A stretch of 64,000 nt of DNA from a virus, in the IMG/VR virus record IMGVR_UViG_3300045988_123324, positions 1 to 64,000 of that record; one strand, written 5' to 3'. The first letter of the stretch is position 1, and every line of letters starts with the position of its first letter. Under the pieces are notes generated by a model. That model made no database searches, had not been told where the DNA came from, and was given only the letters and a program-made list of their open reading frames with translations. Shown here piece by piece: positions 5,795-54,727 of the stretch. A program made the translations under genes and the position numbers.

Positions 5795-6550
5795 TCAATA
5801 GTTAGTTCCTATGATCTCTTTTACTTTTCCTCTTTTGGTCTTGTCACAATTAACCTGTCTGCCAACTTCAACATAGTGAATGTTATAATCTTTATACAGT
5901 TCTTCTGCATGAATACTGTTAGAGAACATTACCATAACACCATCATTGGTGAGTTTATCTATGAACTCCTTTAGCTCTTGGTGACTGAACTTATTTTTAA
6001 CATAATTAGTGAAGTTATCCACATATGGTGGGTCAATGTAAACAAAATCACCTTCTTTTGGTGTGATTGATTCATAACTCATACATTCAATGTTTACATC
6101 TTGTAGATATTTAGACATTTCTAATATTGCGTCATAATCAATTACTTTACCATTTTCTATCCACGGAACATTAAACTCACCCTTACTGTTTTCTCTATAA
6201 AGTCCATTGAAACATTTCTTATTCAGATAAATAAATGACGCTGCAATAGTAAGAGAATCATTTGTTGTATTAAACAAATCTCTCACTCTATAGTATTCTT
6301 CTTCTGTATTATTAAATGTCTTTATCAGATCAATAACTTCTTGTGGATGTTCTCTTACTTCTTTATACATAGTAATAAGCCTATGGTTTATGTCAGAGAG
6401 GTGTCTCTGCCCCCCCCCTAGGATTGAAAATGCAAGTGCTCCGCTGCCTAGAAATGGTTCGTAGTAATCATTATACTTCTTTGGCATAAGTTCTTTTAGT
6501 TTTGGAACTAGCCGTGACTTACCACCAACCCAATGTACTAATAGTTTCAT
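5795..6550 (-). CDS. dam: DNA adenine methyltransferase (Dam, D12 class N6-A)
   Basis: WVGGKSRL, EPFLGSGALAF (AdoMet motif), DINHRLI, and DPPY near the C-terminal third. Confidence 0.9.
   Translation of the reverse strand: MKLLVHWVGGKSRLVPKLKELMPKKYNDYYEPFLGSGALAFSILGGGQRHLSDINHRLITMYKEVREHPQEVIDLIKTFNNTEEEYYRVRDLFNTTNDSLTIAASFIYLNKKCFNGLYRENSKGEFNVPWIENGKVIDYDAILEMSKYLQDVNIECMSYESITPKEGDFVYIDPPYVDNFTNYVKNKFSHQELKEFIDKLTNDGVMVMFSNSIHAEELYKDYNIHYVEVGRQVNCDKTKRGKVKEIIGTNY
6410..6418 (-). repeat. G9 homopolymer (C9 on plus strand) inside dam
   Basis: Encodes GGG GGG GGG (Gly45-47), followed by CAG. Confidence 0.95.
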
Positions 6551-13411: not shown

Positions 13412-13445
13412 AAAAAAAAAATAAGAGGAATTTTTCATCCTCTTA
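13412..13445 (-). terminator. rho-independent terminator closing the structural/lysis transcription unit
   Basis: On the minus strand: TAAGAGGA-8 nt loop-TCCTCTTA followed by T10. Stem 13422-13429/13438-13445; the stop codon of the last lysis gene sits in the loop. Confidence 0.8.
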
Positions 13446-13917
13446 CTGCAATAACTCCGATAAGTCCAATGACTGCTATTTTTAGTATTTTATTTTTAAA
13501 CTCAATGCTCTTTCGCTGATTCTCTAGCTTTTTCAATGATTTGCTTGCTTCTGCTAATTCTTTGTTCGCTGTCTCTAGCGAGTTCTTGGCTTCGCTTGTT
13601 GATTTCTGCGCTTCGATCAATAAGTTCCTGAGTTCTCTGATTTGTCTCTGAGATTCTATCAGTTGTCCTTGTAGCACTGTTAATTGATTCTTCAACTCCG
13701 TTGAGTTTTGACTGGCTGCCATCAAGGATTCGTTCTGTTCTTGTAATAGACTCAGTAGCCCTCTGTTGTTGTTCTCTAACTGTGTCAAGTTGTTGCTCAG
13801 TTCGTCTAACTCCGTCTCTGATATTGTTATCTGAGAACATAGCCCATAAGAAGAACAAGCAAGCAATAACGCAACCGCCAAGAATGAAATACTTGCAATT
13901 TTTCTTAAAAAATTCAT
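13435..13917 (-). CDS. lipoprotein-signal + coiled-coil + C-terminal TM protein (unimolecular-spanin-like candidate)
   Basis: MNFLRKIASISFLAVALLLAC has an n-region, an h-region and a lipobox-like LLAC. The centre is heptad-rich. The C-terminus ILKIAVIGLIGVIAVRG is a TM helix. Last gene of the lysis cassette. Confidence 0.6.
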   Translation of the reverse strand: MNFLRKIASISFLAVALLLACSSYGLCSQITISETELDELSNNLTQLENNNRGLLSLLQEQNESLMAASQNSTELKNQLTVLQGQLIESQRQIRELRNLLIEAQKSTSEAKNSLETANKELAEASKSLKKLENQRKSIEFKNKILKIAVIGLIGVIAVRG

Positions 13918-40250: not shown

Positions 40251-40304
40251 AAAAAAAAATAAACCTACCAATATCACTAATTATTATAGCATATTAGTAG
40301 GTTT
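40251..40304 (-). terminator. possible terminator/attenuator hairpin after the tape measure gene
   Basis: 12-bp stem with one mismatch (40261-40272/40293-40304), 20-nt loop, then T9 on the minus strand (A9 at 40251-40259). Confidence 0.4.
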
Positions 40305-40312: not shown

Positions 40313-43300
40313 TTAGTTACTAAAGCTCATCTGTGCAAATGCACGTCCTGTTCCTCTCACTGTATCTAGTATATATCTTTCTCCCTTAGTTTTCATGAAG
40401 TGCTCCATAGCCTGTTCTTTATTATCAACAACTGCTATACTCATGTTGTTTGTAGTGGACACGCTTGTTCCAACCTTTTCAGCAAATGAGGTCATTCCTC
40501 TTGCTGTTTCTTGTTGTGCGTCTCCTACTGTACCACCATCTGCGAATCTTGGTAGATGTGCTCTAATCTTTGAAAGATTTCCATTATTTACTGCATTGAG
40601 GAAGTTTGTTCCCATCTGTCTAACTGCGCTAGCCTTTACAACAAATTCACCATTACTTAACATAGCAGGTATGCTGTCAGATGTTCCAGTTCCAATGCCT
40701 GAAATCAATCCACCATCTGCGTGCTTTCCTAAACTTGGCTTTGCACCTCTATTACCGCCACCAATTCCAAAACCTGTTATTGGTAGTCCCCCTAGCATCG
40801 ATCCACCGCCGAATCCCATACCTCCTAGGCTGTTGGTTATAGTGTTTATTGCTTGCACTAGCCCTTGTCCTGCCATCTCAAGATTTTGTCCTATGGTCTG
40901 AGTTACTTGAGCAATCTGATTTCCTGCGTCATCTCCGACTGCACTATTTGTGATGCTTTGTGCCATATCTTGTGTTGCCTTTGTTGCAGAATCCGTTCCT
41001 GCGCCAAAGTTTCCTAGATATAGTGTTGCATTTTGTAGCTGTGTGCCAAATCCAGTTAGGCTGTTTAGCGCATTACCTTTATAATCGACTTTATCCAAAG
41101 GCGAGTTTTTAACTTGAAATGCACCTTTTTTCTCCCACGGATGTAGATTTGGTTGACTAATGTCTATTCCCTGCATTGGTGAAATCGTTGTCATAACAAG
41201 AGGATTATTCTGTAACTTATGTCTACCCTGCCAAATTTGTGAGGATGTGGATTCTCCACGTAATGCCATTGTTGAAGCATACTGATCTTGTGGATTGCCA
41301 TTTTCATCGGTGCCATACTTTCTTGCACTTCTTGTTGGGAATAAAGTCTCCATTAGATTTGTGGTAAGCCTATCTGCAAAGAACTTCTGCATTGTTTTTA
41401 AGAAGTCAACAATCATGTTTTTAAGTGCATCACCAAGACTATTAGCGGAATTTATACCGTCAGTTAAGAACTTATTAAGACCATCTGCAAACGCTTGTTT
41501 TGCTTCTTTTCTTAAATCCCTTAGAAGTTCTGGTTGATGACTTTCCTCCTCTGCAAGCAGCTTTGCTGATTTTATGTCTTGACCGCGCATAACAAGTTTC
41601 TGCTTTTGTAGTCTTAATCCTTCTTGTTCACTTTTTAGAACAGCAATTTTATTTCTATATTCATTCTTCTCATTTGCGTCTTTTGCAAGTCTCTCTAGTT
41701 CGATATATTTAGCAAGACTGTTGTTTACATTCGTAAGTTGTTCGTCATACTGACCAAGTGACTTGTTTACAGCTTCAAGCCATGTTCCATATACCTGTGC
41801 TTTTTGCTCATTTTCTCTTGCTTTAATTTCTCTATGTGCAAATGTTTTCTGATAACTTGTCATATCAGTGGTGTCAACCCACTTGTCATAATTTCCATGA
41901 TATGTGGTAATTTGATTTATGTACTGATTAAATATTTCTCCAAGTGTATCAAACGCTTTTAATATTTTTTCTCTTAAATCTTGCGCTTTATCTACTTGCC
42001 CTATAGCTTCAAAGTCTCTAACCTTAGACCACATCTTATCCATTACAAAGGATGGAGACAGTGGGTTATTTACATCATCGTAAAAATACTTCATGTATTT
42101 CTGCATAAATGTAGATAGATCCATTGATCCTGGGTTTCTCTGGAATGTTTCAAATCCAGCATATTCACCCCATGTTTTAGCAGCTTTTAAGTTATAGTCC
42201 AATCTTCTTTCGAGTAATCCAGATTCAGCCTGATTTAGTTCTGCTAAGAAATTAGTTTTTAATGCCACAAGTAGCTTATCTCTATCTGCACCTTCTGGCA
42301 TCTCTGTTAATATCTTTTTAGCTACTTTTTTATATTTTTCTCTTATCTGTAGCGTCTTTGCAGCAAGTGCGGCTTTATAATCTTCTCCATATATATCTAA
42401 TATGTTTGATTGTGAATCTGCTGTTATTTGAAGTATATCTTCGTTAAATTTTTCTAGCTGTTTGTTTGTTTCAGATTCTATCTGTGTATTGCTTGCGTGT
42501 GTCTGATAAGAGCCACCTGGAACAAGACTACCACTTTGCCATCTGGCACCCATCATCTTATTATACCAATCTTCACCAGTGCTATTTGCTGTTATCTGCT
42601 GACCGCCGACACCACCCTTACCAAAGGATACGTCCCAGTGATCTCCTTCCCATCCAGCACCTACGCCGAACTGTCTAAGCAATTCTTCAAGAACTGCCTT
42701 ATTCATTAGTTTGGAGACATCCATTTTCCATCCTTGGTAGTGTCCCCAATTTCCACCGCTACTATGCTTGTCGCTACCAGTAAAGCTAGTTGGCTCTAGT
42801 CTTTCATGTGTTTGTTCATAATACATCTTAGCCAGCAAGTTGACAGCCATTCTTACATTTTCTTGTACTCTGTCTAGGCTCTCCCCAGATTCATTGAAAT
42901 CATCAAAGTTCAAATACCTTGTATCAAAACCATGAAAGTTATGCTCTTTGTCTGGTGTATATCCCATCAACTCGCCACTACTAGAAACCAATGTTTTTTC
43001 TACACCTTCCATTTGTGAAGATGCGTTATTCATGGCTTCTGCCGCGCTCTGCTGTGCTGATGCAGCTCTGTTTTGAGCATTTGCACTTGCTAAAATGTCA
43101 TTGATCGCTGGTAAGAATCTTTGTCTGCCTATTCCTTCTCCTTCTTTGTCTGCGGGTCTTTCTACAAACTTAGTGAAAGCATATGTCATAGCTTCTGCTG
43201 TCTGACCATTTTCGTTATAGTAAGCAAGTGCTTCTTCAAAATATGCTTTCTGTGTATCATTAAGCTCTTTTACTAAATATGCAAGCTGTGTAAGGATGTG

Positions 43301-46300
43301 ATATGGATCACTGTTATTTTGCGCCGCAAATTCAAACAAACCTTCACGCCGTTCTTTCCTCCACTGTGCAATTCCTGTTGCAAGACCAGCAGGTGAGCCA
43401 TCTGCATAATGATCCATATGTTCATTTTGTGGATTATCTAATGATTCGCCCTTTAGAGCAGCTATGATTCCTCTTGCAATAGCATCACTATATCCCTGAG
43501 AAGTAAGGAATCTATATGCTATTTCTTCATTTGTCATTCCTTGTGTATTTTCCGCATTAAGACCTATTGCTGGCGGTTGTCCTGGAACTGCAACACTTTT
43601 CTTTGATGACGTTGGCATACCATAACCGAATACAGCATTTATCATATCATCTCTTGATTGCTCATTTCTTGCTATTGCCTCTGATACACCACGGATTCCA
43701 TCTACTGCATTTCCAAGTTTCTTTTCATTTTCTCGTATTGCTCGTTCTACATCATGAAGTGCTTTTACTTTTTCATATTCATTATTAAACTGAGAGCCTT
43801 GTATTGTCTTTAATTCTTCTTGCGCTTCTTGTAGCCTTAGTTCAGCTTCTTGCTTTTCAATTTCTGCCTTTTGTGTGTAATAGTCTTTAATTGACATGAA
43901 TCCTTCGTCAAAGGCTATTTTGTTTTTATCTAGAATATCTTTTAAATCATCAAGTGATTCTTTCAGTGCATCTTTTAAGCCTTGAATATGCTCCCTCATA
44001 GCCGCCTGTGATGCCTTTATTGCTTCTTGCCGTGCTTTCTTATTTGCCTTTTCATCACTCTCTGGATTAGGATTACCTTTTACATCATTTAGTCCAACCT
44101 TTTTAGCCGAGCCTGTTTGACGCTCCATAGTCTTTTTAAGGTCTTTTATTCCTTGTTCTAATGATTCTGTTAATGTACCTTTCTTACTTAGTTCCCCGTA
44201 TCTTTCAGTTAAGTATTTCTGAAAACTATACCCGTCGGCTGACCATGTTTTTTCTGAAAGGTTATGATTCCATTCTACTGAATTTTTAAAGTCTTTTGCA
44301 GAATTTAGCGCCCAATTATTCACACGCCCAAGAGATTCTTTTACCCCAGTATCATCTATGCCGAAAAATTTCTTAACCCCGCTTGGTAAAGCATCAACTG
44401 CTGAAAGTAGTGCCTTTGCAATACCTGCTCCAAGCATAACAAAGGAAGAATAAAGTATTTTTACTTTCGCACCAATTAGTTGGAGTAACCTAATAACAGC
44501 CATTATTGGGGCTTCCATAATGGTAAATGCTTCAACAATTACGTCTCCAACCCATGTTGCGGCTCTTGCAAGTTCAAAGAATATTTGAATAGCATCCTTG
44601 ACAAGTTCAATAATTGCATCTATCGGATCTTCTGTTCCAGTGAGTTGTTCCAAAAATGCAATAAATCCATCTGCCAATTCTGCAATCATTTCTATTATTT
44701 CAGGCAGTGCTTCTTTTAGTTTCTCTATTGCCTCTGTTGGAATAAATTTTGCTTCTCCAACTTCACTATCTACATCAAGTCCACCTTGAACAATGTTCTT
44801 TTGTGCATCTAGTCCATAATCTTTTCCTTTTTGTTTCCACTTATTATCGACAATATCGAACTCGTTGCCCATCTCGTCTACCCATTTACCAGTAGCATTG
44901 GTAATGGTGTTAAATAGTCCCATAAACATTGGGGCTACATTTTCAACAATATCTGAGCTTACTTTTAACAATCTATCTTGCATACGTTCAAATGCACCGA
45001 CAGGTGTATTTGAATATTCTTCTAACATTTCTTTGTAGCTTTCAAACTTCTGCATTAGATAGTCAAATCTTGCATCTACATCGTCACCGAATTTTTTCAA
45101 ATCATCATTTGTAATATGTAGTGCATTTGCTACCTGTGATGAACGAGATGTTATACTATTCTGTGCTATATCTCTTGTTTCTTGAAGAACCTGATTTGGT
45201 GCTAACTGTAGTGTCTTTGCCGTCGCAGCTATGCCTTTATTTACTCTATATGCTTGGTCAAGGCTCATGCCCTTACTCATTAGCATTGGTAGAGTACCCT
45301 GCAAAGATTCAATTATTTCTGAAAAATCAAATACTGATTTTTCTGCATCAAGCATAGCCTTATTCATTAGTTTTTGGGATAGTGTTATGGAAGTTGCACC
45401 AGAAGCTTCACCATAGGCATCTTTAAATCCTTTTCCGCCAACATATCCCTGTGACTGTATCGCCGCAGCCATACCATATGTAGCCTTAGACTTCTTTACA
45501 TATAGTTCTATTCCTGGTTTTAACGCTTCATATATAAGCGACACAAGTTGCATTAGTGCATGTCCAAGAGAAGATGTAATGCTTAATAGTGATGAAAACG
45601 CCGCAAATACACCAGTAAGAACAGCAATCCCAGGAAGAATCCTAGCAGCAAATGTTCCAATAGCTCCGCTTGCTCCACCAGTGCCAGCATTTTTAGCAAG
45701 TTCTCCTAGTTGATATGCCGCAACTTCTAGTGCTGAACCAAAGCCCTTACTTGCGCGACCGATTGAGTAGATAGCATTGGAAGATGCTTTTGCATACCAA
45801 GGTGCCTCGTCAATATGATTATCTTTTCTTAGCAGGTCATCAACTTCGTATTCTCTTCCACCAGTATGTCTTTGTAGTCTACTCCTAGACCTGCGATTAG
45901 TTCCATCAGACAATCCAGTTTCTACCCTATTTGCTCTTGCATTTATATTTATATTACTGTTTCTCTTAATATCCGCAATCGCGTCTCTTATCTTTCCTAG
46001 AGTGCTTAATACGCCTTTATCTTCTAATGTTGTTGTAATCTTCTTATTTCCAGTTATTGAATCTAGGATCTTGCCAAGAGATACTGCTTTTGAGGTTGTA
46101 TCTTCAAACCCGCTTGGTTTAATGTTTACAGAATTACTCCCAGATAGTCCTTTTAATGCACTGCCTACTCTTGAGATTGCGCTCTCTGCACCCCTTGCAC
46201 TAGACGCATCAATATTTATTGACTTTCCCCTAATATTGTCTAGTTGCTTTCTAATGGATGCTATTTTTGACGTTACTTCTTTATCATCAAAATTAGTCTT

Positions 46301-46507
46301 TATCTTTGCAGTAAGTCCATCAAGTTGCTTTCTTAAACTGCTTAGTTCTTTATCTACTGATGCACTATCTACTCCTAATTTAATATTTCCTTGAAGTGAC
46401 TTTGTTGCGCCCTCTATTGCTTTGTTTAATTCTTTTATCTCTGCAATAGCTTTATCAGCTTTTGCTTTAAACTCAACTTCTTGTACTACTTTTGCCAAAC
46501 TATTCAT
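40313..46507 (-). CDS. tail tape measure protein with embedded cell-wall hydrolase domains
   Basis: 2064 aa, mostly coiled-coil/Gly-Ala-rich, directly after the G/GT chaperones. Contains a tail-lysozyme-like segment (AALKGESL...GLATGIAQWRKERREGLFEF) and an M15-like GHYQGWKMDV...GDHWDV segment. Confidence 0.9.
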   Translation of the reverse strand: MNSLAKVVQEVEFKAKADKAIAEIKELNKAIEGATKSLQGNIKLGVDSASVDKELSSLRKQLDGLTAKIKTNFDDKEVTSKIASIRKQLDNIRGKSINIDASSARGAESAISRVGSALKGLSGSNSVNIKPSGFEDTTSKAVSLGKILDSITGNKKITTTLEDKGVLSTLGKIRDAIADIKRNSNININARANRVETGLSDGTNRRSRSRLQRHTGGREYEVDDLLRKDNHIDEAPWYAKASSNAIYSIGRASKGFGSALEVAAYQLGELAKNAGTGGASGAIGTFAARILPGIAVLTGVFAAFSSLLSITSSLGHALMQLVSLIYEALKPGIELYVKKSKATYGMAAAIQSQGYVGGKGFKDAYGEASGATSITLSQKLMNKAMLDAEKSVFDFSEIIESLQGTLPMLMSKGMSLDQAYRVNKGIAATAKTLQLAPNQVLQETRDIAQNSITSRSSQVANALHITNDDLKKFGDDVDARFDYLMQKFESYKEMLEEYSNTPVGAFERMQDRLLKVSSDIVENVAPMFMGLFNTITNATGKWVDEMGNEFDIVDNKWKQKGKDYGLDAQKNIVQGGLDVDSEVGEAKFIPTEAIEKLKEALPEIIEMIAELADGFIAFLEQLTGTEDPIDAIIELVKDAIQIFFELARAATWVGDVIVEAFTIMEAPIMAVIRLLQLIGAKVKILYSSFVMLGAGIAKALLSAVDALPSGVKKFFGIDDTGVKESLGRVNNWALNSAKDFKNSVEWNHNLSEKTWSADGYSFQKYLTERYGELSKKGTLTESLEQGIKDLKKTMERQTGSAKKVGLNDVKGNPNPESDEKANKKARQEAIKASQAAMREHIQGLKDALKESLDDLKDILDKNKIAFDEGFMSIKDYYTQKAEIEKQEAELRLQEAQEELKTIQGSQFNNEYEKVKALHDVERAIRENEKKLGNAVDGIRGVSEAIARNEQSRDDMINAVFGYGMPTSSKKSVAVPGQPPAIGLNAENTQGMTNEEIAYRFLTSQGYSDAIARGIIAALKGESLDNPQNEHMDHYADGSPAGLATGIAQWRKERREGLFEFAAQNNSDPYHILTQLAYLVKELNDTQKAYFEEALAYYNENGQTAEAMTYAFTKFVERPADKEGEGIGRQRFLPAINDILASANAQNRAASAQQSAAEAMNNASSQMEGVEKTLVSSSGELMGYTPDKEHNFHGFDTRYLNFDDFNESGESLDRVQENVRMAVNLLAKMYYEQTHERLEPTSFTGSDKHSSGGNWGHYQGWKMDVSKLMNKAVLEELLRQFGVGAGWEGDHWDVSFGKGGVGGQQITANSTGEDWYNKMMGARWQSGSLVPGGSYQTHASNTQIESETNKQLEKFNEDILQITADSQSNILDIYGEDYKAALAAKTLQIREKYKKVAKKILTEMPEGADRDKLLVALKTNFLAELNQAESGLLERRLDYNLKAAKTWGEYAGFETFQRNPGSMDLSTFMQKYMKYFYDDVNNPLSPSFVMDKMWSKVRDFEAIGQVDKAQDLREKILKAFDTLGEIFNQYINQITTYHGNYDKWVDTTDMTSYQKTFAHREIKARENEQKAQVYGTWLEAVNKSLGQYDEQLTNVNNSLAKYIELERLAKDANEKNEYRNKIAVLKSEQEGLRLQKQKLVMRGQDIKSAKLLAEEESHQPELLRDLRKEAKQAFADGLNKFLTDGINSANSLGDALKNMIVDFLKTMQKFFADRLTTNLMETLFPTRSARKYGTDENGNPQDQYASTMALRGESTSSQIWQGRHKLQNNPLVMTTISPMQGIDISQPNLHPWEKKGAFQVKNSPLDKVDYKGNALNSLTGFGTQLQNATLYLGNFGAGTDSATKATQDMAQSITNSAVGDDAGNQIAQVTQTIGQNLEMAGQGLVQAINTITNSLGGMGFGGGSMLGGLPITGFGIGGGNRGAKPSLGKHADGGLISGIGTGTSDSIPAMLSNGEFVVKASAVRQMGTNFLNAVNNGNLSKIRAHLPRFADGGTVGDAQQETARGMTSFAEKVGTSVSTTNNMSIAVVDNKEQAMEHFMKTKGERYILDTVRGTGRAFAQMSFSN

Positions 46508-47618: not shown

Positions 47619-49103
47619 TTATGCCTCCGTATTAAGATTCATTATCCATTTCGTGTTGCCAGCTCTGTAAACTTTTTTAGCACCAAGTCTGCCCATAATA
47701 AAATCTTCTTTATTGTTTGCGTTTTCTGTTACTGCCTCTGCATATAAATCTCCATATAATTCTTTCAACAAATGCAACTGACAAGAAGTTCTTTTTAGTT
47801 CCCTGTTATTATAAAACCAGTAATAGTTTTCTGAAACACCACAATTAGAAAATCCTAACTTTTTATATACATCACCACTAAAGAAGTCATTATCAGAATA
47901 ACTTTTTATGCTTTCTGGTTGATGGTCATTGATAAAATGTTTCAATAGTTTTTCAGCCCCACCAACAATAAAATATTTATCGCTAACTACATATCTATGC
48001 AACTCATATTGATTACCACCACTTTTTGCGAACCTTGGAGTCCCAAAAGACATCAAAGAGATCAACTCATTATTATAATATAAACCATAATTTATCTTGC
48101 ATAGTCTATACCACCCCTGCAAGTGATGTTTTTCAATAAACATTTTTGCAACTTGTAAGTCCACTAATCTAACTGAACAGTTTCTTGCAAAAACCCTTTC
48201 TTTTTGTATCAACAACGATCTTATATATGTTTTTATTTTTTCTTGTTTTTCTGACTTCCAGTCCACGTCAAAAATATTCAAAAGTTTAATTCCCATTGAT
48301 AGTGCAACAGAAAATTTATCATAATGATACGTTTTATTCACATTCTTAAATGCTCCGTTTATTGTGGCATGAAATGGGCTTCCATTATACTCAATTCCAA
48401 TTTTTAGCTGTGGGATATAAATATCAATTTCTTTTCCGTTCAAAATTTTTGCCTTTTCAATGTTTTTATCACCAATAATAGAACAGATAAATTCCTTTAT
48501 TTCTTTTTCTTCTTTTGACCCACAAACATGAACAACACTATGTCCACAAGATGTTGTATGTCCTCTCCTCAGATTATTAGCAGTTACTACAACTTCTTTT
48601 CCACAAGAACATTTGCATTTCCACATCGAGTGTAGATTTTTTCTTCCTACAAATTCAACAACTGTAAGCTCCCCATATGTATGCCCAGTTAAATCATTAA
48701 ACCACTCCGTTTTTGTTCTTTCTTTGTTTATACACCCACACGATGTAACCGCACCAGAAGTAAGGTTATATCCCTGAACAATAGTTTTATTCCCACAAGA
48801 ACATATGCAATTCCAATAATCTTTTCTGTTTTTATCAAAATGGCTAAATGAAACAACACTAAGTCTACCAAACGGTTTTTTCCCCAACAGCCTTGTTGTA
48901 TTTCCATGTTCTTCTTTCCGCAAACATCCACAAGACTTTATTCTTCCAGAATTTAGTCTATCTGCTCTTACTTCACACTCATTTCCACAATCACATTTAC
49001 AGTGCCATTTTTTATTTTCGTCATTAAACCACAACGGAACAAGTCTTTCAAATCTTTTCCCTGTCAAGTCAACAAAATTCCACGGACGTTTATTCCCACT
49101 CAT
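47619..49103 (-). CDS. homing-endonuclease-like protein: three Zn-ribbon repeats + restriction-endonuclease-like (Vsr/DUF559-type) core + C-terminal domain
   Basis: Three copies of L.G..FG.L.V......W.C.C.CG......L..G...SCGC. Then EIDIYIPQLKIGIEYNGSPFH (D..[IL]P....IEYNG). Free-standing between polA and the tail genes. ATG at 49101-49103. Confidence 0.5.
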   Translation of the reverse strand: MSGNKRPWNFVDLTGKRFERLVPLWFNDENKKWHCKCDCGNECEVRADRLNSGRIKSCGCLRKEEHGNTTRLLGKKPFGRLSVVSFSHFDKNRKDYWNCICSCGNKTIVQGYNLTSGAVTSCGCINKERTKTEWFNDLTGHTYGELTVVEFVGRKNLHSMWKCKCSCGKEVVVTANNLRRGHTTSCGHSVVHVCGSKEEKEIKEFICSIIGDKNIEKAKILNGKEIDIYIPQLKIGIEYNGSPFHATINGAFKNVNKTYHYDKFSVALSMGIKLLNIFDVDWKSEKQEKIKTYIRSLLIQKERVFARNCSVRLVDLQVAKMFIEKHHLQGWYRLCKINYGLYYNNELISLMSFGTPRFAKSGGNQYELHRYVVSDKYFIVGGAEKLLKHFINDHQPESIKSYSDNDFFSGDVYKKLGFSNCGVSENYYWFYNNRELKRTSCQLHLLKELYGDLYAEAVTENANNKEDFIMGRLGAKKVYRAGNTKWIMNLNTEA

Positions 49104-51354
49104 ATGGTTCTCCACTCCAACATTTTGATACCTCTACATCACATCTTAGTGCTGCGTCTATTCCTACACCACCAGCAAGAAACTCTTTTTTCAAAATAGG
49201 TATTGCTTCTTGTAAATGTTCTTTTGGAACGCTCATTCCACATTCGTCATGTATTGTCAGAAGTATATATACTCCAAGCTCTTTTAATCTTTCATTCCTC
49301 GCAATATTTAGCATAGCCCTCTTTGTAATATATGCCGCTGTTGATTGAACAGGGTAATTATAGCATAATCTTTCTGCCTGTGCAATAAATCCACCATTTT
49401 GTTTTATCAGTATTCCTTTGCGTTCTGCTTCACTGATAATTTCTTTTTTCTCGTCTTGTCCCCAAGCATTTTTCATCTTATTCCAGTATAGATTCCTATA
49501 GTAATCAAACTGCCTATCTGTAAGAATCTTATCTTTTTGTGTTATTTCATACTCAGGAAGATTTAAGTCTGGAAGTCTGCGCCGTCCACCATAGAAGTTT
49601 TCAACGTATCCATGCTTTCTCCCAAATTCTACAACATTTTTTAGATATCTAGCAAGATCTGGAAAAGCAACCATAATAGAATCTTTTATTTCCTGTGCCT
49701 TTTCCTTTGATACGTTTAAATCCTCTGCAATAGCCTTTACTCCCTTACCATAGCAAATTCCAAGACAAATTGCCTTTGCATGCTTCCTGCGCTCTTTACC
49801 CTCTTTGTTTGTTGTCCCGTCTGCATTAAACTCTAAGCAGTCCTCATACTTTTTGTTAAATGCAATAGACGCAACATGGCTATAAATGTCTCTGCCAAAA
49901 TTAAACGATTCTAACATCTTTTTTTCATCTGCCAGTGATGCTACTGCCATCATCTCTTGTTGACTGAAATCTAAAAACACAAACACTCTATCCTCACCTG
50001 CGACAAACATATTTCTTATGTCCTTATTTTTCGCAGGGATCTGCTGGGCGTTGGGATTACTGCTTGAAAAGCGCATCGTATCGGTTCCGCACTGATTGAA
50101 ATTCGGATGAATCTTTCCACGGTGTTCAAGTGCATCTTCTGTGAGTTTATCAATGAAAGAACTTATGAGTTTATCATATTTCTTTACTTCTTCTAGTGCT
50201 GAAAAAATTTCCCTTACTCTTGTTCCTTCATATTTTTTCTGCCCCATTACTGCATTTATGACATGTTTTCCTGTCCCTCTTGGTTCTTTTTCAAATATTA
50301 CACCAGTTTTCATAATATCATAAATCAGTATTTGAAGTTGCTTTGGGCTATTGAAATTTACTGGATATTCAATATCTCCCATGACTTCCATGCGGGCGCG
50401 TATTTCTGATTCTAGCGGTTCTATTGATTTAGCAAATTTATGCTGTGCGTCAACCAACAATTTAGTGTATTTTTCTTTTAGCTTATTTGCTGTACTAAAA
50501 TCGAAATTAATCCCGCGAACCTTCATGTCACATACTAATTTCTGTATTGGCATCTCTACTTCCCAGAACAACTTTGAAATACGCTCAAGTTTATAGTCAC
50601 TACACTCTTTTGTTCCTACAGTGAGATATGGTCTAAAGAACTCTCCTAAGTCTAGGCTCATGTCAGCATCTTTAGCCGCATATGGAAAACCAACTTCAGG
50701 TGGTATATAGTTAAATGGTATGCCATCGAACAATTCAGCGAATTTATCTGCTTTTTTACCACCACTACAATACTTACCATATAGATATTTTAACCCATGC
50801 TGTTCGTTCTCATTAAGGAGATGAGATGCAATTAGTGTATCAAATGTAGCCCACAGCCATATACCAAACTGCACCTTAATCAATACTGTATCAAAGTATG
50901 CGTTGTGCATATATATGTCTGCTCCACTATCTGCAAGTATCTGTAGACCCTCTTTTACTTTTTCTTTACTGATCTGTTTATCCAATAGCATATCTGTTAT
51001 TGGGCTTGTATGTCCTATTGGAATATACATGGCTTTCTGAGACGGGCTTTTCATAGACAGACCAACAATATCACACAATATGTTATCCAGAGAAGTAGTC
51101 TCAGTATCAATAGCAAATACACCGTCTTTTGCAGCTTGTCTACAATAGTCCAACCACCAATCCTCATCTGTAATAAGAAGAAAGTTATTTTTTTCTTCTC
51201 CAAGGTTTTTTTCAACGAGCCTACTGATTGATGCAATCTTTTCTATAAGTGTTCCTTTTTTGAGTTTTATCTTTGGTTTGTGTGTTTCTTGTGTTTTCTT
51301 TAATATGTTATGTATATTCTCAGTTGTCCGACATGGTAACTTGAACAATGCCAT
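49090..51354 (-). CDS. polA: family A DNA polymerase (Pol I-like, with 3'-5' exonuclease domain)
   Basis: Exo I FAIDTETTSL; motif A VFLDFSQQEM; motif B RRKHAKAICLGICYGKG; motif C LLTIHDEC. Confidence 0.9.
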   Translation of the reverse strand: MALFKLPCRTTENIHNILKKTQETHKPKIKLKKGTLIEKIASISRLVEKNLGEEKNNFLLITDEDWWLDYCRQAAKDGVFAIDTETTSLDNILCDIVGLSMKSPSQKAMYIPIGHTSPITDMLLDKQISKEKVKEGLQILADSGADIYMHNAYFDTVLIKVQFGIWLWATFDTLIASHLLNENEQHGLKYLYGKYCSGGKKADKFAELFDGIPFNYIPPEVGFPYAAKDADMSLDLGEFFRPYLTVGTKECSDYKLERISKLFWEVEMPIQKLVCDMKVRGINFDFSTANKLKEKYTKLLVDAQHKFAKSIEPLESEIRARMEVMGDIEYPVNFNSPKQLQILIYDIMKTGVIFEKEPRGTGKHVINAVMGQKKYEGTRVREIFSALEEVKKYDKLISSFIDKLTEDALEHRGKIHPNFNQCGTDTMRFSSSNPNAQQIPAKNKDIRNMFVAGEDRVFVFLDFSQQEMMAVASLADEKKMLESFNFGRDIYSHVASIAFNKKYEDCLEFNADGTTNKEGKERRKHAKAICLGICYGKGVKAIAEDLNVSKEKAQEIKDSIMVAFPDLARYLKNVVEFGRKHGYVENFYGGRRRLPDLNLPEYEITQKDKILTDRQFDYYRNLYWNKMKNAWGQDEKKEIISEAERKGILIKQNGGFIAQAERLCYNYPVQSTAAYITKRAMLNIARNERLKELGVYILLTIHDECGMSVPKEHLQEAIPILKKEFLAGGVGIDAALRCDVEVSKCWSGEPYEWE

Positions 51355-53403: not shown

Positions 53404-53638
53404 GCTGTTTCCTCTCATAATCAAACACTATGTCACCACTATCAAACAACTCTTCTAGCGTTTTATATGGTGTCATATTTTCTAAAAACCAGTATGTCCA
53501 GCAATCATTATAGACACCAGTTGGTTTATGTATACCTGGCGCCCATCTTCTATTCTTTGGTTTTTTCACACTATCCCTCTGTGACGATACTTTTGAAGAA
53601 CTTTCCCATAATTCGTCTATCTTCATGTTTTCAAACAA
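53345..53638 (-). CDS. hypothetical protein
   Basis: ORF track; overlaps the neighbours at both ends. Confidence 0.5.
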   Translation of the reverse strand: MFENMKIDELWESSSKVSSQRDSVKKPKNRRWAPGIHKPTGVYNDCWTYWFLENMTPYKTLEELFDSGDIVFDYERKQREYKRAIEHGDNDTFADNL

Positions 53639-54648
53639 TCACCTCCACTCAATGCTTCTTTTATACCACCTAAAACATATGTAGCACAAGGAATAGCAAT
53701 ACCATTTCCAATGGCTTTATATCTTGCTGAACTCCCTCCGTGAGCAGTATACCCAACTGGAAGTCCCTGTAGTTTTTCACATTCTGACAGTGACAACTTC
53801 CTAAGTATTCCAGAACGGCTTGAACTATTATATGTATGGATAACAGGTATTTGATTTCCACCCGTACCCATTCTTGCGTTTAAGGTCTGTATACAGTCCT
53901 CTCCAACATATCTAAGGGCTTCATTTGCATGAGTCATATCATAGATTGTATTTTTAATGTATCCATTAGTTCCATCGACAGAAGTATCTGATTTTCTCTC
54001 ACTCTCCGAAGTATTCCAAGACACGCTTTTGGACTTAAATAATACTTCTGCAAACCTTCCTTGCCCCCCCCCGTTGTTTGGTCTAAAATCTGCGACAAGG
54101 AAGATTCTCTTTCTTCTCTGGGGAACTCCCCAACCTCTTGCATCAGTGAGCCTCCACGAAATGTCACAGTTTTTGCTTCTAACCAATCCTGCGTTTGCCC
54201 ATCTTCCAGATCTAGGTATTGGAATATTGGTTTCTGAGATTTCTTCAAGCACAGTTCTAAAATCATTCCCTTTATTGGTTCCAAATGCGTTTTTGACATT
54301 TTCCCAAACAATGAACTTTGGGTATTCTCCATTAGTCGCTTCCCTCATCTCTCTTATAATGCGTATAGCTTCATGAAACAAGCTACTTTCTTTTCCATGT
54401 AAACCAACCCTATTTCCTGCAACACTCAAATTTTGACAAGGACTAGAGAATGTAATAATATCAACCGTCTCAATCTCTTTTCCATTAATATGCCTAATAT
54501 CTCCTAACTGTTTAACATATGGAAAATGAGCATTGCTTACTTTCATTGGAAACGCTTCAATTTCACTACTCCACAGCGGCTTTATTCCAAGTCTCTCTGC
54601 CACAAGCATCCAAGAACCAATGCCGTCAAATAGGCTTCCTAGTGTCAT
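53623..54648 (-). CDS. dcm: DNA (cytosine-5)-methyltransferase
   Basis: Motif I LFDGIGS, motif IV SSPCQNLS, motif VI VWENVKN, motif VIII QRRKRIFLV, motif X GNGIAIP. ATG at 54646-54648 behind AAGGAGG. Confidence 0.9.
   Translation of the reverse strand: MTLGSLFDGIGSWMLVAERLGIKPLWSSEIEAFPMKVSNAHFPYVKQLGDIRHINGKEIETVDIITFSSPCQNLSVAGNRVGLHGKESSLFHEAIRIIREMREATNGEYPKFIVWENVKNAFGTNKGNDFRTVLEEISETNIPIPRSGRWANAGLVRSKNCDISWRLTDARGWGVPQRRKRIFLVADFRPNNGGGQGRFAEVLFKSKSVSWNTSESERKSDTSVDGTNGYIKNTIYDMTHANEALRYVGEDCIQTLNARMGTGGNQIPVIHTYNSSSRSGILRKLSLSECEKLQGLPVGYTAHGGSSARYKAIGNGIAIPCATYVLGGIKEALSGGDCLKT
54064..54072 (-). repeat. G9 homopolymer (C9 on plus strand) inside dcm
   Basis: Encodes GGG GGG GGG (Gly199-201 of the track ORF), followed by CAA. 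Located in the variable region after motif VIII. Confidence 0.95.
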
Positions 54649-54672: not shown

Positions 54673-54701
54673 AGTATAACATATTTATGGATTTTTGTCA
54701 A
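54673..54701 (-). promoter_or_regulatory. sigma70-like promoter upstream of dcm
   Basis: Minus strand TTGACA (54696-54701) - 17 nt - TATACT (54673-54678). Confidence 0.55.
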
Positions 54702-54703
54702 AC

Positions 54704-54727
54704 AAAAAGGCAGGTTTTATCCTGCCT
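54704..54727 (-). terminator. rho-independent terminator after the SSB-like gene
   Basis: 7-bp GC-rich stem 54708-54714/54721-54727, 6-nt loop, then TTTTTGTTT on the minus strand. Confidence 0.6.

Follow-up and report, generated by a model that had tools for sequence, protein, structure and literature searches.

Phase-variable methylases under the control of repeats are classic in bacteria, as in the poly-G-controlled Type IIG gene cj0031 of Campylobacter jejuni (PMC4889913). Among phages, homopolymer contingency loci have been shown in T2/T4 (Gomez, Barrick & Waters 2025, preprint, PMC12633550). As cited in that preprint, poly-G tracts occur in receptor-binding genes of Campylobacter Fletchervirus phages (Sorensen 2021), and a methylase gene of Bordetella phage BPP-1 also contains one, which received no further study (Liu 2004). 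Two C5-cytosine methylases are relevant for their divided structure: the beta chain of M.EcoHK31I lies in another frame wholly inside the alpha gene, carries motif IX and is required for activity (PMC2836561), and M.AquI is split after motif VIII, with fragment complementation described in monomeric C5 methylases (PMC3404938). Here, we investigated a run of nine G residues (G9) in a C5-cytosine DNA methyltransferase gene (dcm) of an uncultured gut phage, in the 64,000-nucleotide stretch formed by positions 1 to 64,000 of IMG/VR record IMGVR_UViG_3300045988_123324 (hereafter, the window). We found that this G9 is probably a slipped-strand contingency tract, which heritably changes the coding state of a putatively orphan phage methylase independently of a second G9 tract in an adenine methylase gene (dam) of the same phage.

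The locus resembles bacterial repeat-containing methylases and phasevarions in having a G run within a methyltransferase coding sequence, frame-shifting lengths, in- and out-of-frame alleles in relatives, and tracts that combine. Unlike in those systems, the genes are carried by a large phage of virulent type that encodes its own replisome, and a dual-coding stretch contains one of the two tracts. Because the methylases are putative orphans, with no nuclease recognised alongside, the likely benefit is self-protection against host restriction and not control of a host regulon; for a lytic-type phage, an anti-restriction role appears likelier than a phasevarion. In common with the phage contingency loci above, homopolymer slippage in phage genes would yield heritable frameshift variants and bet-hedging. 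In contrast to BPP-1, two methylases of a single phage lineage here show natural allele series, and single contigs carry different combinations of the alleles; moreover, G runs are strand-specifically enriched throughout a methylase family found in gut phages and prophages. The tract type is already known, and the whole is a variation on it that brings together four features: a single phage carries two putatively switchable methylases in naturally occurring allele combinations, G runs are strand-specific across the family, a conserved open reading frame (ORF) is nested in dcm, and slippage converts fused into split forms. A literature search, in which subscription journals were thinly covered, found no paper on the dual coding or poly-G enrichment of this family, and this is absence of evidence only.

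The tract and its length alleles

The main features of the two genes are as follows.
54064..54072, minus strand: G9 homopolymer, Gly-Gly-Gly in the dcm frame and also in the nested +1 frame
53623..54648, minus strand: dcm gene, 341 amino acids (aa) from ATG 54648; the longest ORF extends to GTG 54666
54094..54120, minus strand: motif VIII (QRRKRIFLV); the +1 reading of the same nucleotides is REERESSLS
5795..6550, minus strand: D12-class Dam-type adenine methyltransferase gene (dam), 251 aa, PF02086, E=1.4e-45
6410..6418, minus strand: second G9 tract, CTA GGG GGG GGG CAG (ILGGGQ), in the loop after motif I

The plus strand at 54064–54072 is C9, i.e., G9 on the coding (minus) strand, read as AAC GGG GGG GGG CAA (N-G-G-G-Q). 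The run starts 7 codons past the end of motif VIII, and dcm is in frame. ATG 54648, with GGAGG upstream, is the most likely start and gives 341 aa. The product is a C5-cytosine methyltransferase by profile match (PF00145, E=7e-45, residues 7–336) and by the ordered motifs I (LFDGIG), IV (SPCQ), VI (ENV), VIII (QRRKR), IX (LSLSECEKLQG) and X (GNGIAIP) in a single frame. Dcm was 100% identical to DAF57422.1 of the uncultured phage “Myoviridae sp. ctqfO1” (on ~119-kb contigs). The nearest characterised methylases, from gut Clostridia and Streptococcus phages, shared 41–55% aa identity, and a megablast search of GenBank phages with the dcm locus gave no match and no close genome.

Both G runs are longer than composition predicts. 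Runs of C in the window numbered 19 at length 5, one at length 6, none at lengths 7–8 and two at length 9, and the only G/C runs longer than 6 were the two G9 tracts. The expected number of G/C runs of at least 9 per window was 0.02 in a second-order Markov simulation (200 replicates) and 0.05 by geometric extrapolation, against two observed, both in methylase genes; no simulation (0/200) contained two or more. The two methylase genes make up 2.8% of the window, and two random positions would both fall inside them with p ~8e-4. GGG accounts for 14% of the Gly codons, and among 10 Gly-Gly-Gly tripeptides in 39 ORFs, the spelling GGG GGG GGG occurred only in the two methylases. The first-pass annotation had described the codons of the dcm run, its position after motif VIII, its in-frame state, a second G9 with an adjacent Gln codon in dam, and the improbability of two such methylase runs by chance; reading the ORFs and the calculations above bore out each of these points.

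We found that the dcm tract varies in length among relatives with identical flanks, whose Dcm proteins are 84–100% identical.
G6, in frame: L219–L221, from three samples
G7, shifted: L217
G9, in frame: the window
G10, shifted: L005 and L218
GGGGGGCGG, in frame, interrupted: L003, L004 and L136

Dcm products drawn from 90%-identity protein clusters, several of them present on 2–4 contigs each, gave the same picture.
341 aa, NNGGGQ, corresponding to G9: five distinct sequences
340 aa, NNGGQ, corresponding to G6: five distinct sequences
NNRGQ (P0397) and NNGGRQ (P0385/P0384): corresponding to an interrupted tract
204 aa, ending ...NNGGGARKVCRSII, corresponding to G10: four distinct sequences, one of them on 4 contigs
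203 aa, ending ...NNGGARKVCRSII, corresponding to G7: two distinct sequences

These products match exactly those predicted for each tract length. The four 204-aa sequences came from ENA, Logan and JGI, and G10 was found on at least 5 contigs. The alignment of the G10 allele of L005 contains no other gap, i.e., its dcm is frameshifted without a further lesion, and the C-terminal halves of shifted alleles are intact and called as separate PF00145 ORFs. All out-of-frame dcm alleles of the window lineage (6/6) belonged to the +1 class (G7, G10). In- and out-of-frame length polymorphism among near-identical genomes, as expected of a contingency locus, is therefore present; its absence was what the first-pass annotation had named as telling against switching, and we found G6, G7, G9, G10 and GGGGGGCGG for dcm and G8, G9, G12 and a 10-nucleotide (nt) interrupted form for dam. 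An exact flank pattern had 0 matches in IMG/VR because one flank base differs in relatives, and one metagenome scan for the dcm tract returned a single contig, carrying the interrupted allele.

We regard it as highly improbable that the tract is a plain Gly3 loop whose length differences are homopolymer sequencing or assembly errors. All of the variation does come from assembled contigs, and long G runs are error-prone on several platforms. However, independent samples and assemblers gave the same alleles repeatedly (three samples with G6, at least 5 contigs with G10 and four sequences of the 204-aa product), the in-frame G6 and G12 differ by whole codons, which random error does not favour, and the approximately 15-fold enrichment described below is specific to methylase genes and to one strand.

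Under the contingency reading, replication slippage would heritably change tract length and, with it, the coding output of the dcm locus. In-frame lengths would give normal cytosine methylation of the phage genome, and +1 lengths would leave methylation off, strongly reduced or altered. The population would thus hedge between a shield from methylation-sensitive restriction and exposure to methylation-dependent (Type IV) restriction. We infer the reversibility of the tract and its switching rate in the same way.

The dam tract and allele combinations

For dam, the predicted products are 53 aa with G8 and 52 aa with G10. The Dam cluster contained proteins of 251 aa (G9), 252 aa (ILGGGGQ, G12), 53 aa (G8) and 52 aa (G10-type), together with many 191-aa C-terminal pieces. 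The −1 class, nearly absent for dcm, is present for dam (G8, 53 aa). Both tracts could be read together on three contigs.
Window contig: dam G9, in frame; dcm G9, in frame
ERZ28633935 scaffold_164: dam G12, in frame; dcm G7, shifted
ERZ28660240 scaffold_32 (L222): dam GGGGGGTGGG, 10 nt, interrupted, shifted; dcm G10, shifted

The first-pass annotation had expected four methylation states from independent switching of the two tracts. Three of the four in- and out-of-frame combinations were seen on single contigs. With dam GGGGGGTGGG and dcm G10 on one contig, L222 is a candidate “locked-off” double mutant.

The dam tract is not conserved everywhere. A relative whose Dam is 84% identical to that of the window (L134, IMGVR_UViG_3300045988_142297) kept dam G9, another (L135) lacks the tract in a gene two codons shorter, and the dam tract or the whole gene is missing in some relatives. 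Directly after dam, L134 carries a third methylase-like gene (L134:2272-2600, MKVLVACEESQRVCISFRELGHEAYSCDILPA-G10-HEEWHLQQDV...AFPPCTY), in which G10 (L134:2366-2375) is out of frame and G9 would restore the frame. This gene is not in the window, where dam is followed by a RecA-like gene. Two database labels among these phages look wrong: in nr, the ctqfO1 Dam-type protein (DAF57427.1) bears the name “Cytosine specific methyltransferase”, and a 118-kb relative (record DAU04294.1) is labelled “Inoviridae sp.”.

A conserved reading frame nested in dcm

The dcm tract lies in a stretch that is open in two frames.
53934..54332, minus strand: nested ORF in the +1 frame of dcm, 132 aa from ATG 54332, Shine–Dalgarno-like GAGGGAAG upstream; spans G9 (...SLSQILDQTTGGGKEGLQKYYLS...)
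53934..54047, minus strand: KYYLS module of the nested ORF (KYYLSPKACLGILRRV...), two predicted helices; the dcm frame here is a variable linker

The nested-ORF translation was found in the same frame inside methylase genes of 47 GenBank phages, and the ORF matches 305 called proteins. A profile of its C-terminal 55 positions matched 4,343 clusters in a 1.84-billion-protein library and occurred on at least 563 viral contigs and in at least 509 species’ genomes, mostly of Clostridia and Negativicutes. Relative to motif VIII, the nested frame was +1 in 80/80 viral and 72/80 genomic loci. Over 33 codons from KYYLS in 40 non-redundant genes (62% DNA identity), aa identity was 0.68 in the +1 frame, compared with 0.34 in both the dcm frame and the third frame, and single-chain genes alone (n = 45) gave 0.69 in the +1 frame versus 0.35 in the dcm frame. 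In the dcm codon alignment, third-position conservation was 0.41–0.55 in motifs I–V, 0.63–0.88 in the overlap and 0.34–0.53 past the nested stop, and just after motif VIII, conservation rose in the order first < second < third codon position. Judged from these alignments, the +1 frame is under purifying selection, which over the KYYLS stretch is stronger than that on the methylase frame.

Like dcm, the C5-methylase gene of M.EcoHK31I contains a conserved second ORF in another frame. In contrast to the beta chain of that enzyme, the nested ORF lacks motif IX, which lies in the main frame (LSLSECEKLQG), and bears a KYYLS...GILRRA module; the two are set apart here by motif content. The upstream half of the nested ORF is largely set by conserved dcm motifs (PQRRKRIFLVADF read in +1 gives P.EE.ESSLSQIL), and the downstream half (KYYLSPKAC.GILRRA..RGK.LP..L..AL) lies over a poorly conserved dcm linker.

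AlphaFold was confident only for the last ~37 residues of the nested ORF, with predicted local confidence (pLDDT) of 77–95 for the KYYLS helices. For a beta-type relative, confidence was limited to the KYYLS module and motifs IX–X. A Foldseek search with this relative matched in the IX–X region only, superposing on M.HhaI and DRM structures, and returned no match, hence no function, for the KYYLS module. Neither Pfam (E up to 10) nor a PDB sequence profile search matched the nested ORF. The KYYLS stretch may resemble the post-motif-VIII segment of canonical C5 methylases, for which the Pfam and PDB searches gave no confirmation. One protein (P0016) was considered as a stand-alone nested protein and rejected, as the methylase frame is also present beneath it at its locus.

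The nested ORF accounts for many odd ~130-aa “hypothetical proteins” and many split methylase calls in databases.

G runs across the methylase family

We surveyed G runs of at least 7 in 80 IMG/VR loci with related genes (57 after dereplication). Such runs occurred at 0.54/kb within the methylase gene and 0.03/kb in the flanks, i.e., about 15-fold more densely. On the coding strand, there were 51 runs of G and one of C, and 21 of the 57 dereplicated loci had at least one G run. The runs recur in loops at about five positions, namely before YPRF-WENV, before motif VIII, after motif VIII (the window site), at the nested-ORF end, and inside the recognition domain. Poly-G reads as Gly in all three frames, so both overlapping genes would tolerate the run in a loop, which would account for finding runs of G there and not of C, A or T.

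Sister contigs differ by one G where the tblastn frame changes, with G7 in frame in L057, L058, L067 and L069 and G8 shifted in L085, L089, L091 and L098. The +1 class made up 4/4 of the out-of-frame alleles in the L057 lineage and 5/6 at site D. This bias may reflect a slippage insertion bias or a better tolerance of the class that expresses both halves. In a cultured phage, Clostridium phage Saumur, the same gene carries an out-of-frame G12 at the pre-motif-VIII site.

These data also bear on gene decay, in which the methylases would be dispensable, the G runs mere hotspots, and the shifted alleles pseudogenes heading for loss. Some alleles do look locked or degraded, such as dam GGGGGGTGGG with dcm G10 on one contig, the interrupted GGGGGGCGG and NNRGQ forms, and the relatives that have lost the dam tract or gene. 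Against this, the shifted genes are free of other lesions and keep their downstream frames intact, long perfect tracts persist in lineages 84–100% identical (in dam at 84%), and G runs have arisen repeatedly at five sites despite GGG being a minority codon, which is the opposite of hotspot removal. We therefore consider decay rather unlikely.

Two further runs were noted in this survey. In L056, the gene upstream of dcm encodes a motif IV-like DPPW with a G8 (L056:760-767) directly after it, which suggests that a neighbouring amino-methyltransferase of another phage also has a slippery G run. On a viral contig of 55% G+C, a compound run of G8, C and G12 (L093:1062-1082) lies downstream of the methylase match, ~470 bases past its end.

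Single-chain and split forms

We assigned fused and split forms by tblastn frames in 80 bacterial-genome loci. Motifs IX and X were in the frame of motif VIII at 24 loci (fused, as in the window) and in the nested-ORF frame at 20–25 loci (split alpha/beta, with overlapping ORFs), the latter mostly without a G run. In many long “beta-type” proteins, a single frame runs from the nested-ORF leader through the KYYLS module and the recognition domain to motifs IX–X. At the nested-ORF end, one extra G turns fused L059 into split L063/L070. As far as frames can be read from these contigs, slippage of the tract interconverts fused and split forms by single-base changes at poly-G in several lineages. 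We also observed a three-ORF methylase without a homopolymer (L065:1631-3146; also L007–L009; three samples), in which alpha is in one frame and a KYYLS ORF and a recognition/IX–X ORF are both in +1, divided by one stop (2382-2384).

For the window lineage, the products predicted for each tract length are as follows.
G9, G6 and G12: full-length enzyme (341 aa with G9, 340 aa with G6) plus the nested protein (132 aa)
G7 and G10: alpha chain of ~204 aa (motifs I–VIII, stop ten codons past the tract) plus a 236-aa chain of nested-ORF leader, linker, recognition domain and motifs IX–X, without the KYYLS module
G8 and G11: alpha chain fused to the KYYLS tail (~238 aa), with motifs IX–X uncovered

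The family shares with M.AquI a split in the variable region after motif VIII into two ORFs, alpha (motifs I–VIII) and beta (the rest of the variable region and motifs IX–X). The window G9 allele is a single chain, whereas the natural G7/G10 alleles and about half of the related bacterial loci show the M.AquI-type split. Unlike M.AquI, the ORFs of this family overlap by ~100 or more codons in different frames, and single-base changes interconvert fused and split forms.

Some of these observations count against a simple contingency interpretation. Every allele is an assembly consensus, so homopolymer assembly error is possible for any single contig. Moreover, “out of frame” may not necessarily mean OFF, because the +1 class rebuilds an alpha and beta-like pair resembling the stable split relatives, and both split C5 methylases and complementation between fragments have been described (PMC3404938, PMC2836561). 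Because the tract lies in a dual-coding stretch and all six shifted alleles are of the +1 class, its sequence context indicates that the dcm tract is not a plain ON/OFF device.

An architecture switch is accordingly a possible alternative, although a minority one in our judgement. Here, the +1 alleles (G7, G10) would produce a two-subunit enzyme that still methylates, consisting of alpha (motifs I–VIII) and a beta' chain (leader, linker, recognition domain and motifs IX–X), with the level, timing or specificity of the split enzyme perhaps altered, and the conserved nested ORF would be there to supply the start and leader of beta. The family has two stable forms among the 80 bacterial loci (24 fused versus 20–25 split, mostly without a G run), one G at the nested-ORF end is enough to turn L059 into L063/L070, long beta-type proteins are common, and shifted alleles are nearly all +1 (6/6 in the window lineage, 4/4 in the L057 lineage, 5/6 at site D). 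In addition, a natural split after motif VIII is known for M.AquI, and complementation has been described between fragments of M.HhaI, M.BspRI, M.BsuRI and M.SssI (PMC3404938). Conversely, the beta' chain of the window lineage would lack the KYYLS module that beta retains in natural split members; the nested ORF is only putatively translated; the +1 bias could equally be a mutational insertion bias; and dam shows both +1 and −1 alleles, which are necessarily null (52–53 aa).

Recoding at the RNA level, by which slippage or frameshifting on G9 would yield the full-length enzyme, the alpha–KYYLS fusion and beta' from one allele with DNA changes being secondary, seems very doubtful. Homopolymers of at least 9 are known RNA polymerase slippage sites, and both frames past the tract are open and conserved. 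However, DNA-level variation was directly observed, and most family members keep the nested ORF without a homopolymer, so its expression is independent of a slippery run.

Implications of probable tract switching

Beyond the contingency reading, we tentatively suggest, as an idea more likely wrong than right, that this is a widespread dual-coding methylase family of gut phages and prophages in which the nested ORF is translated and needed and poly-G acts as a three-state switch (single chain plus small subunit, split alpha/beta, or null). If so, self-methylation in phages would be adjusted in form and level, beyond a simple choice between on and off.

Whether a phage survives host restriction depends on its methylases, and methylation in turn exposes the DNA to methylation-dependent defences. 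A heritable stochastic switch in two methylases, if true, would create several epigenetic states within one phage population, which matters for host range, for phage therapy and for how gut-virome methylomes are interpreted. With the allele series at hand, the switch can be tested directly in existing metagenome reads. In addition, the nested conserved ORF lies within thousands of annotated “DNA cytosine methyltransferase” genes and has been missed by gene callers.

Genomic context and other features of the window

Upstream of dcm, two transcription signals were recognised.
54673..54701, minus strand: promoter-like site, near-consensus sigma70-type (TTGACA-17-TATACT, TG before the −10; 11/12 matches)
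54708..54727, minus strand: terminator-like hairpin and T run at the end of the upstream gene

Because the promoter-like site is preceded by the terminator-like hairpin, dcm appears to be its own transcription unit. Its neighbours encode a primase, a 254-aa and a 97-aa ORF (both without a Pfam match) and a clamp-like protein; no nuclease was recognised among these neighbours, two of which are unannotated. The phage encodes its own DNA polymerase, DnaB-type helicase and primase as well as clamp-like and RecA-like proteins.

A 498-aa ORF (47619-49115, minus strand) has strong HNH/homing-endonuclease PHROG matches and a weak Mom-like match, and lies directly downstream of the DNA polymerase gene (49090-51354, minus strand). 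Because its ORF covers only positions 645–1232 of a 1445-position profile, the polymerase may be split, or a mobile endonuclease may have interrupted it.

The strand asymmetry of the window is extreme, with 40 of the 42 ORFs of at least 150 aa on the minus strand and a plus-strand composition of 13,943 C versus 8,754 G and 23,513 T versus 17,790 A. Two intergenic runs on the plus strand, A10 (13412-13421) and A9 (40251-40259), which read as T on the gene strand, closely follow the stop codons of ORFs 13435-13917 and 40313-46507; they probably represent terminator tails, not coding repeats.

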